64,000 nt of DNA, taken from contig OY764147.1 of NCBI GenBank assembly GCA_963668115.1, positions 456,345 through 520,344 on the forward strand, in the 5' to 3' direction. The position numbers and the translations under genes were made by a program. The notes below the pieces were generated by a model. The model saw only the letters and a program-made list of their open reading frames with translations. It was not told the DNA's origin and did not search any database. The stretch is from Dehalococcoidia bacterium. Its GTDB lineage: Bacteria; Chloroflexota; Dehalococcoidia; Plut-88900. Of this stretch, positions 6,476-22,066 are shown piece by piece. Numbering within the stretch: position 1 is the first letter of the stretch; every line of letters starts with the position of its first letter.

Positions 6476-6575
6476 GTGGGAACGGAGGCGGGGATGATGG
6501 GGGTGAGTGGGGAGCTTGCGCTGCAGATTCCTCGCGGGGCATCGGAATGGGAAGGGGGAGTCGGGGGTGGGGGGA
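6476..6575. repeat. Intergenic repeat copy R5 (module B GGGGATGATGGGGGTG plus module C GCAGATTCCTCGCGGGGCATCGGAATGG)
   Basis: Module B is shared with 33078 and 35849. Module C is shared with 21091-21121. Confidence 0.55.
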
Positions 6576-20369: not shown

Positions 20370-20568
20370 CCGCTCGGGGGTGAGATGAGAGTCCTGGGGG
20401 CGATGGCGGTCGGTCTCGCGCTGATATTGAGTGCGTGCGGGGGGTCGGGAGAGCCGGCGCCGGATGTCGGGGCGGAGGTGTAGATGCCACGGTAGACCTT
20501 TTGCCAATCACGGCTAAAAACCGTGGGTGAGGCAATGCAATGCTCGGGCTCCACGGCGTCGTGTTCTC

Positions 20569-20598
20569 TTGACCCTTTGAAAAGTGGGTGGCTATAAT
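20569..20598 (+). promoter_or_regulatory. Sigma-70-like promoter (TTGACC-18 nt-TATAAT) upstream of the desulforedoxin-like pair
   Basis: TTGACC at 20569-20574 and TATAAT at 20593-20598, read directly from the sequence. Confidence 0.45.
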
Positions 20599-20659
20599 TG
20601 CCGGAAATCTCGTTGGGCGCGGGCTAGGGGCCCGGGCCTGATTTTCCAAGAGGCGCTAC

Positions 20660-20779
20660 GTGGCAAATCAGACTGGTAAGCGGTACAAATGCGATAGCTG
20701 TGGGTCGGAGTTCATAGTGACCCGGGGCGGGAACGGCTCGATCTCGTGCTGCGGGAACGAGATGGGTTTGAAGAAGTAG
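20660..20779 (+). CDS. Desulforedoxin-like (rubredoxin-type FeCys4) mini-protein, 39 aa
   Basis: VANQTGKRYKCDSCGSEFIVTRGGNGSISCCGNEMGLKK aligns motif-for-motif with D. gigas desulforedoxin (..YKCELCGQVVKV..GGGTLVCCGEDM..). GTG start with AAGAGG RBS. Below the ORF-track size cut-off. Confidence 0.6.
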   Translation: MANQTGKRYKCDSCGSEFIVTRGGNGSISCCGNEMGLKK

Positions 20780-20835
20780 GGGTCGGGGCCCGGGTGGGAC
20801 GACTCATTACAACATGACGGAGAGGACTTAGCGGA

Positions 20836-20979
20836 ATGCCAAACTTGCTGGGCAAACGATTCGTGTGTGAGAACTGCGGGAGCCAGGTGCTGTGCACGAA
20901 GGCGGGGGAAGGCGCAGTGCATTGCTGCAGCCAGGAGATGACGTTGCAGCAGCCCAAGCCTCTTCCCTCGGCGGACTAG
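20836..20979 (+). CDS. Desulforedoxin-like mini-protein paralog, 47 aa
   Basis: MPNLLGKRFVCENCGSQVLCTKAGEGAVHCCSQEM.. has the same CxxC..CC spacing. GGAGAGGA RBS. Confidence 0.55.
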   Translation: MPNLLGKRFVCENCGSQVLCTKAGEGAVHCCSQEMTLQQPKPLPSAD

Positions 20980-21054
20980 GCTCTTCTTTTAATTCTTTCA
21001 GGTCTGCTCGCCAGACGCGTGAGCGCGCCCACGTCAGATTATCCTGTGCCGTTG

Positions 21055-21125
21055 TGGGATGACGGATAGGGGGGTGGAGGGCGAGCAGGCATTGCAGGCT
21101 CCTCGCGGAGCCTCGGAATGGCTGG
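21055..21125. repeat. Intergenic repeat copy R6 (GGGATGACGGATAGGGGGGTGG plus module C ATTGCAGGCTCCTCGCGGAGCCTCGGAATGG)
   Basis: Module C is near-identical to 6521-6551 and contains the hairpin GGCTCC-tcgc-GGAGCC. Confidence 0.55.
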
Positions 21126-21266
21126 TAGCAGCCATCACCTCAACCCTCCGCCACCCCTTCGGTCATATACCTCGACAAGCTCAGGACAAGCTTCGCTAGC
21201 TTCAGCCCAAGCGGCCCGTCCACCCAGAGGACAGGTTATGTGAAAGTCCCGTGAAGGAAGGGTGGG

Positions 21267-21899
21267 TCAGGACAGTTTGCGGATGACTCCTATGACCCGG
21301 CCTTTGACGGATAGGTTGGAGGGGTCCACGTATATGGGATCCATCTGGGAGTTGGCGGGCTGGAGCCTTATCTTGTCCTGCTCGTGGTAGAGGCGTTTAA
21401 GGGTTACCTCTTCCTCGGATTCGAGCCAGGCGGCGACCATGTCACCATCGTCGGCGGTGGTGGAGTGCTGGAGGAGGACGATGTCCCCGTCGTCGATTAG
21501 TGCGTCGATCATGGAAGTACCCTTGACCTTAAGGGCGTAGACGTTTTCGCGTCCGCTGATGAGGTCTTCGGGGACGTCCAGGGTCTCGAGGGAGTCCCAG
21601 GGCTCGGCGGTGGGGACTGGGAGGGGTTCGCCGGCGGCGATGGCGCCGAGGAGGGGGGCCTTGAAGGCCTTGGCCTCCTTGCGGTCGTAGCCGATAACCT
21701 CTATGCCCCGCGACACGCCGGAATCCCGGCGGATGTAGCCCTCCCGTTCCAGGGCCTTGAGATGGTAGTCGGCTACCGAAGTTGAACTCATGCTACACAT
21801 CTGCACCACGTCGCGGACGCTGGGCGGGTACTTGTGACGGTCCATGAAATCGATAACGGCATCTAGAACTTGTTTGCGTCTTTTAGACAGCGGTCTCAT
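21267..21899 (-). CDS. lexA: LexA repressor
   Basis: N-terminal wHTH plus C-terminal S24 peptidase (…KVKGTSMIDA… Ser/Lys dyad). 210 aa. Confidence 0.9.
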   Translation of the reverse strand: MRPLSKRRKQVLDAVIDFMDRHKYPPSVRDVVQMCSMSSTSVADYHLKALEREGYIRRDSGVSRGIEVIGYDRKEAKAFKAPLLGAIAAGEPLPVPTAEPWDSLETLDVPEDLISGRENVYALKVKGTSMIDALIDDGDIVLLQHSTTADDGDMVAAWLESEEEVTLKRLYHEQDKIRLQPANSQMDPIYVDPSNLSVKGRVIGVIRKLS

Positions 21900-21915
21900 C
21901 GAGCACCTCTTTTCT

Positions 21916-21929
21916 GAACTGGGGTTCTA
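21916..21929. promoter_or_regulatory. LexA (Cheo-type SOS) box TGAACTGGGGTTCT
   Basis: GAAC-N4-GTTC palindrome 17 nt upstream of the lexA start, matching CGAACRNRYGTTYC. Confidence 0.6.
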
Positions 21930-22066
21930 TCACATATTAACCGAGTATCAAGGATGTGTCAAGGGGGGCAGCGGAGATTGCGCGTAGAGCGCTTCGGGGA
22001 GCGTGCTGACGTAGAACGGCAAGGATGACCGGGGATGATGCGCCAGGTCCCGGTGAAGGCGAACAG

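Follow-up and report, generated by a model that had tools for sequence, protein, structure and literature searches.

Two short adjacent open reading frames, ORF1 and ORF2, in the stretch of DNA analysed here (64,000 nucleotides in all, hereafter the window) encode, as judged from homology and selection, diverged desulforedoxin (Dx)-like proteins of two types, A and B. The best explanation of the data, and in our opinion a fairly probable one, is that the two products make up a co-expressed A:B heterodimeric metalloprotein of the desulforedoxin fold, which would serve as a small metal-centred shuttle or adaptor. Desulforedoxin is usually viewed as a curiosity of sulfate reducers, and to our knowledge its physiological role was never settled. 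The diverged Dx described here is encoded by a cassette of two strictly linked genes, present in hundreds of Chloroflexota and Desulfobacterota, most of them uncultured. This cassette offers a concrete, testable system for what may be a Dx heterodimer whose conserved tail would serve for docking.

Two desulforedoxin-like genes and their expression signals

Table 1. Positions of the genes, their expression signals and neighbouring features in the window
Feature	Position	Strand	Details
32-codon ORF	20385-20483, with 20530-20565	+	MRVLGAMAVGLALILSACGG...; lipoprotein-type signal peptide and lipobox
Sigma-70-type promoter (predicted)	20569..20598	+	-35 TTGACC 20569-20574; 18-nt spacer; -10 TATAAT 20593-20598
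5' leader	20599..20659	+	~55 nt; GC-rich possible hairpin (GGGC..GCCC); sequence kept in relatives
Shine-Dalgarno site of ORF1	20648-20653	+	AAGAGG; 6 nt before GTG
ORF1, A-type desulforedoxin-like gene	20660..20779	+	GTG start; 39 aa; MANQTGKRYKCDSCGSEFIVTRGGNGSISCCGNEMGLKK
ORF1 ligand codons	C11 20690-92, C14 20699-701, C30 20747-49, C31 20750-52	+	
Intercistronic spacer	20780..20835	+	56 nt
Shine-Dalgarno site of ORF2	20819-20826	+	GGAGAGGA; 9 nt before ATG
ORF2, B-type desulforedoxin-like gene	20836..20979	+	ATG start; 47 aa; MPNLLGKRFVCENCGSQVLCTKAGEGAVHCCSQEMTLQQPKPLPSAD
ORF2 ligand codons	C11 20866-68, C14 20875-77, C30 20923-25, C31 20926-28	+	
ORF2 extra conserved Cys20	20893-95	+	
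ORF2 C-terminal tail			QQPKPLPSAD; 10 residues
ORF2-lexA spacer	20980-21266		287 nt
lexA	21267-21899	-	LexA_DNA_bind and Peptidase_S24; convergent to the Dx pair
lexA promoter region	21900-21965	-	TTGACA...TAATAT
LexA box	21916-21927		GAACTGGGGTTC (GAAC-N4-GTTC)

The original prediction had named two ORFs of 39 and 47 codons with the exact desulforedoxin cysteine spacing, and the spacing C-x2-C-x15-C-C is indeed exact in both (Table 1). CXXCX15CC is the conserved metal-binding signature of the Dx domain (SORGOdb, PMC3116461). The predicted homology to the desulforedoxin domain was also borne out. Against Pfam PF06397 (Desulfoferrod_N, gathering threshold 23 bits), ORF1 scored 34.6 bits (E 1.5e-8), above the threshold, and ORF2 scored 22.9 bits, 0.1 bit under it; a precomputed PF06397 match exists for 10 of 13 close ORF2 homologues. 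The nearest B homologues, P0018-P0020, are without a precomputed Pfam match. A PDB sequence search with ORF1 alone matched Desulfovibrio gigas desulforedoxin (1cfw, E 9e-5), and the top PDB sequences for an A+B profile were the N-terminal domain of desulfoferrodoxin (E 1e-5) and desulforedoxin (E 1.3e-4). Rubredoxin appeared in the profile search at E 0.88 only; its ligand pattern is CxxC...CxxC, whereas the second ligand pair of ORF1 and ORF2 is an adjacent CC. The cut-off of NCBIfam TIGR00319 (desulf_FeS4, 36.05 bits) was not reached by ORF1 (25.6 bits) or ORF2 (17.0 bits), and these scores are consistent with a diverged subfamily.

The D. gigas Dx (1DXG/1CFW, PF06397) is close in size (36 aa vs. 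39 and 47 aa) and has in common with the two products the MAN start, the CxxC-x15-CC spacing, the GG.G turn and the CCG..M motif; the identity between ORF1 and Dx is 43%. It is the product of a single gene, whereas A and B are two diverged paralogues (ORF1 and ORF2 are 44% identical, E 1e-14) that are always encoded together, and it has GDVY where A and B have GKR[YF]. The invariant Cys20 and the 10-residue conserved C-terminal tail of B are also absent from it. The hosts of Dx are Desulfovibrio, whereas those of A/B are mainly Dehalococcoidia and other Chloroflexota. The centre-I domain of desulfoferrodoxin (class I/Dx-SOR; 1DFX, 1VZG) is the best PDB profile match and shares CXXCX15CC, and the A-family consensus CCGQPMELKK resembles CCGEPMKLM of desulfoferrodoxins. 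Unlike desulfoferrodoxin, A and B have no catalytic centre-II domain (neelaredoxin, PF01880) and end after 39 and 47 residues; their scores against TIGR00320 (class I superoxide reductase) were 23.9 and 22.7 bits and did not reach its cut-off of 146.9 bits.

A consensus scan of the region gave one promoter-like site, TTGACC-18-TATAAT, matched at 11 of 12 positions, in agreement with the prediction that the pair has its own promoter and each gene a ribosome-binding site. TTGAC and TATAAT are invariant across 23 related loci in which the flanking sequence has diverged. The 160 nt ahead of A contain TTGAC-N16-19-TAnAAT in 36 of 81 loci, vs. 9 of ~3774 control windows, and the presence of a near-consensus promoter at many loci suggests strong expression. 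Shine-Dalgarno-like sites are found ahead of A in 79/81 and ahead of B in 80/80 loci. The near-consensus sigma-70-type promoter would drive a bicistronic unit, with a putative transcription start ~7 nt after 20598, and each ORF would be translated from its own Shine-Dalgarno site. A structured RNA or riboswitch in the leader was ruled out: an Rfam search of the leader gave no match, and the stability of its hairpin was no better than that of shuffles (z -0.78).

Selection, annotation and distribution of the A/B cassette

Nei-Gojobori analysis was performed on 10 close loci, found by exact-protein look-up, and on 80 species-representative GTDB loci. Read in frame, A gave pN 0.18, pS 0.77 and a median dN/dS of 0.20, and B gave pN 0.22, pS 0.81 and a median dN/dS of 0.11, whereas the DNA of A and B read in two shifted frames gave dN/dS >1.5. 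Since low dN/dS was found in the proposed frames only, we concluded that ORF1 and ORF2 are, on this evidence from the sequences, real and constrained protein-coding genes under purifying selection. The ORFs are very short, and A is left uncalled by public gene finders in the 10 relatives, as would be expected of chance open frames or of non-coding sequence, e.g., a regulatory leader, in GC-rich DNA. We give this explanation practically no credence and regard it as already refuted by the selection and conservation data: strong purifying selection is confined to the proposed frames, the proteins are conserved across two phyla and have Pfam and PDB homologues, and the Shine-Dalgarno sites and start positions are conserved. 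RiPP precursors or SCIFF-like peptides were ruled out by the clear Dx homology and by the lack of a maturase neighbour.

Both ORFs are below a 60-aa ORF threshold. In the public gene tables of the 10 close relatives (L001-L010) B is called and A is absent, and in P0001-P0006 A is called with a false upstream start, a TTG overlapping the -10 box, that lengthens it to ~60 aa. In the window this longer form is interrupted by an in-frame TGA at 20639, and 81 loci share the downstream start; judged by this comparison, the public 60-aa versions of A are mis-calls. With A usually uncalled or given a false start, it is missed by comparative and proteomic studies.

A genome scan with the ORF1-family alignment found an A-type gene in 325 GTDB species genomes, and 80 of these loci were kept for analysis. 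Most of the 80 are from Dehalococcoidia, other Chloroflexota and SAR202, and nine are labelled Desulfobacterota or other phyla. B lies 70-220 nt downstream of A in 90 of the 91 loci examined, in at least two phyla. A regular expression for the Dx signature found the second gene downstream of A in 85/91 loci; five of the six negative loci still have B, bearing C-H or C-D instead of C-C. Mean identity was 74% among A, 64% among B and 50% between A and B, and each type is on average 27-39% identical to classical Dx and desulfoferrodoxin. By these comparisons A and B are distinct orthologous groups, and the pair is an ancient, fixed "A then B" cassette in Chloroflexota and Desulfobacterota, not a local duplication. 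The original prediction had taken it for an unusual duplicated pair in this genome, which does not fit with a cassette present in 90/91 loci of two phyla and made up of separate orthologous groups. Nor can the Dx domain be called rare, as the protein had been assumed to be: among 1.84 billion cluster representatives (50% identity), the A+B profile found 1293 matches at E<=1e-3, of which 305 were at E<=1e-10. In the literature searched we found no paper on paired or heterodimeric desulforedoxins, and no description of the fifth Cys, the invariant tail, or the fused and ligand-degenerate relatives reported below.

A is 38-39 aa long in 88 of 91 loci and 40-43 aa long in the other three, its product is net basic, and its start codon is at the same position in all loci (ATG in 55, TTG in 13, GTG in 12). 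Thirteen positions, all four Cys included, are 100% conserved in the 81 species-level loci (N3, G6, K7, Y9, C11, C14, G15, V20, T21, G26, C30, C31 and K38), and the CxxC-x15-CC ligand set is intact in 81/81 A genes. B has exactly 47 codons in 90/90 loci that carry it. L5, G6, R8, C11, C14, L19, C20, C30, S45 and D47 of B are 100% conserved in the species-level loci; the fifth Cys, at position 20, is thus invariant in the sample examined. The tail of B follows the consensus Q-[QE]-P-[RK]-P-[LI]-P-S-[SA]-D with an invariant C-terminal Asp. The full CxxC-x15-CC set is present in 75 of 80 B genes and the last pair is C-H or C-D in the remaining five; three of the four Cys never vary, and the last ligand is Cys in 94% and otherwise His or Asp.

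Two other groups of proteins were noted beside the cassette. P0015-P0017 are 40-aa A-like proteins (..TGKRYVCPxCGSEFIVTRGG...LRCGD..LEEKK) with three Cys only, the CC pair having become C-G, and with no PF06397 match on record; their sequences suggest a sister family whose ligand set has changed. P0033 (1353 aa) consists in part of at least 11 repeats of ~45 residues (..GSQYVNHVTNQEFVFT..GW.EVPCCA.PMFVGPA..), each of which matches the A/B profile and is without CxxC. The likeness to A/B (EFxxT...CC..PM) is probably convergent.

Natural fusions and the proposed A:B heterodimer

The top of the A+B profile matches is dominated by dozens of single-chain proteins of 80-120 aa with two matched stretches. 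In these an A-like half is followed by a variable linker of 5-40 residues and a B-like half with PS[SA]D at its C-terminus (examples are P0031, P0032/OGA02305.1 and P0040/MBE3555840.1); only one of the fusions listed has the reverse order (B-A). PF06397 matches both halves, and in public records the fusions are named at most "hypothetical protein." They share with the two-gene form both halves, their order, the LGKRY motif and the PS[SA]D C-terminus, and differ from it in being one polypeptide and in their often degenerate metal ligands. Because natural A-linker-B fusions exist, A and B would be expected to act together physically (Rosetta-stone argument).

The Dx fold was assessed on a homologue of the two products, fusion P0031. 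An AF2 model built from a 42-sequence fusion MSA had a pLDDT of 83.1 and a pTM of 0.72, with low confidence in the linker only, and the pTM of this 90-residue two-domain chain suggests a defined inter-domain arrangement. The best PDB match of the model was desulforedoxin 1dxg_A (TM 0.95 on the target, rmsd 0.4 Å over 35 residues, probability 0.98). The predicted structure thus matches D. gigas Dx domain by domain, which supports an A:B heterodimer.

In the proposed mechanism, each product would fold into a desulforedoxin knuckle and bind one metal ion via CxxC-x15-CC. Because the two-gene form shows next to no variation in its ligands, the ORF1 and ORF2 proteins almost certainly bind metal, as far as ligand conservation can tell. 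Given the strict linkage, the fusions and the Dx homodimer, the data are most naturally read as an A:B heterodimer or, in the fusions, as an intramolecular pseudo-dimer. We infer that A and B would associate 1:1 into a pseudo-symmetric heterodimer that corresponds to the homodimer of Dx; that the metal would most likely be Fe, as in D. gigas Dx, with Zn possible; that one-electron transfer (Fe3+/Fe2+) would be the default function by homology; and that the complex would dock onto a partner encoded elsewhere by means of its N-terminal GKR[YF] motifs and the tail of B. Such a complex would most likely be a small, abundant, metal-centred shuttle or adaptor.

A and B could instead be two independent homodimeric desulforedoxins that are merely co-transcribed and have different redox partners. 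D. gigas desulforedoxin is itself a homodimer (PDB 1DXG), and a full ligand set is kept in A as well as in B. The gene organisation is not that of a classical single-gene homodimer, the paralogues being linked in 90/91 loci and fused elsewhere, and both the A-then-B linkage across phyla and the recurrent fusions in the same order are hard to account for if the two proteins do not associate physically. The distance matrices of the two families, A and B, correlate with r 0.52, which is weak evidence of association since the phylogeny is shared. We consider two separate homodimers quite improbable.

The state of the metal ligands in the fusions bears on the function of the heterodimer. All four Cys are kept in 20 of 42 A halves and 19 of 42 B halves; a further 11 B halves are Cys3His and two are Cys3Asp. 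Several halves are without any plausible ligand set, some B halves having neither CxxC nor CC and some A halves no Cys. In the same proteins the Gly of LGKRY is invariant and the Arg nearly so, and the C-terminus is D or E in 36/42. The loss of metal ligands in about half of the fusions, against the retention of GKRY and of an acidic C-terminal residue, makes a purely redox role uncertain, and the family-wide function may not be redox. An electron shuttle is still the default reading; because the GKR[YF] motifs and the B tail outlast the ligands in the fusions, its main rival is a non-redox, metal-stabilised adaptor or carrier with the Dx fold as scaffold, like a zinc ribbon. In such an adaptor, GKR[YF] and the carboxylate of the B C-terminal P-L-P-S-[SA]-D would dock into, or be modified by, a partner enzyme (cf. 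LysW).

In addition to the degenerate fusions, the adaptor would be in keeping with the length and terminal Asp of B, invariant in all species-level loci, and with ~15 loci in which the pair is flanked, within one operon, by an AMP-dependent ligase and two family-III CoA-transferases. A predicted protein, P0183, joins a Dx-like domain to an AMP-binding domain and would point the same way, although it may be a gene-calling artefact. Against this, the two-gene form, including that of the window, keeps all ligands, which would be costly if the metal were dispensable, and no ligase, of the ATP-grasp or any other type, is a constant neighbour. LysW/ArgW carriers are a functional analogy: they also have a small Cys4 metal-ribbon domain, an extended tail and a conserved acidic C-terminus, and one fusion has a weak Pfam Zn_ribbon_LysW match, below the cut-off. 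They differ in ligand pattern (CxxC...CxxC), in fold family and in their EDWGE tail. None of the LysW-type signatures (CxxC...CxxC, EDWGE, linkage to a LysX-type ATP-grasp) is present in ORF1/ORF2 or the loci surveyed, and we found no evidence of homology between A/B and LysW/ArgW. On balance we think an adaptor of this kind unlikely, if somewhat less so than two homodimers.

We would also put forward, tentatively and at a similarly low likelihood, that A/B is an undescribed family in which the Dx fold is a hetero- or pseudo-dimeric scaffold for a docking or carrier module of an enzyme system. It is then conceivable, with the same reserve, that the function resides in GKR[YF], Cys20 of B and the ...P-L-P-S-[SA]-D carboxylate, instead of or besides a one-electron carrier. 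If the ligand-degenerate fusions keep the function, the family would show how a redox fold can be taken over for a non-redox role.

Genomic neighbourhood

All ORFs within ±4 kb of the 80 loci were clustered, and this survey gave no universal partner gene, only four lineage-specific contexts. In context I (~19 loci, the lineage of the window) the pair has its own promoter and a convergent lexA lies downstream. Context II (~17 loci) has the order DUF6125, A, B, His_Phos_1, putative endonuclease III and putative ArgC, the last two labels coming from reading of the sequences and not from Pfam. In these ~17 loci (L026, L034, L036, L040, L046, L064-L070, L073, L076, L077, L080) the DUF6125 gene lies on the strand of A, stops 35-40 nt short of it with no promoter match between, and is probably co-transcribed with the pair. 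Context III (~15 loci) is the operon mentioned above: two enoyl-CoA hydratases and the AMP-dependent ligase precede A and B, the two family-III CoA-transferases follow, and an amidohydrolase is convergent. This same-strand cluster occurs in MAGs of both Chloroflexota and Desulfobacterota (L028, L035, L044, L061, L063, L090 and others) and could represent an acyl-CoA pathway shared by horizontal transfer, with a dedicated role for the pair. In context IV (~10 loci) UPF0047 is followed by A and B.

The original prediction had suggested that the pair may be an electron-carrier or oxidative-stress module. In the 64-kb window, tblastn gave no superoxide reductase, rubredoxin or desulfoferrodoxin beyond the two ORFs, and no rubrerythrin or other redox partner was found there. 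The lexA gene downstream of ORF2 has a perfect Gram-positive-type LexA box in its promoter region, the sole perfect match in the window, and box and own promoter together point to classic autoregulation. SOS regulation of the Dx pair via the adjoining lexA was rejected, as the surroundings of the Dx promoter contain no LexA box and the two transcription units converge; the link between the pair and lexA is positional only.

The spacer between ORF2 and lexA folds better than 200/200 shuffles (z -3.47), and its fold includes a long imperfect hairpin around 21069-21160. Its length in relatives ranges from 54 to ~480 nt, and a partial copy is present at window positions 6499-6550 (77% over 52 nt). 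No canonical terminator was found in this spacer; it could act as a bidirectional terminator or represent a small repeat element. Upstream of the Dx promoter, the 32-codon ORF (Table 1) aligns to the 5' end of a gene for a trypsin-like protease of 520-680 aa in the related loci L011, L012 and L001. Because ~1.2-1.9 kb of the protease gene is missing from the window and from L014, this ORF is a deletion remnant.
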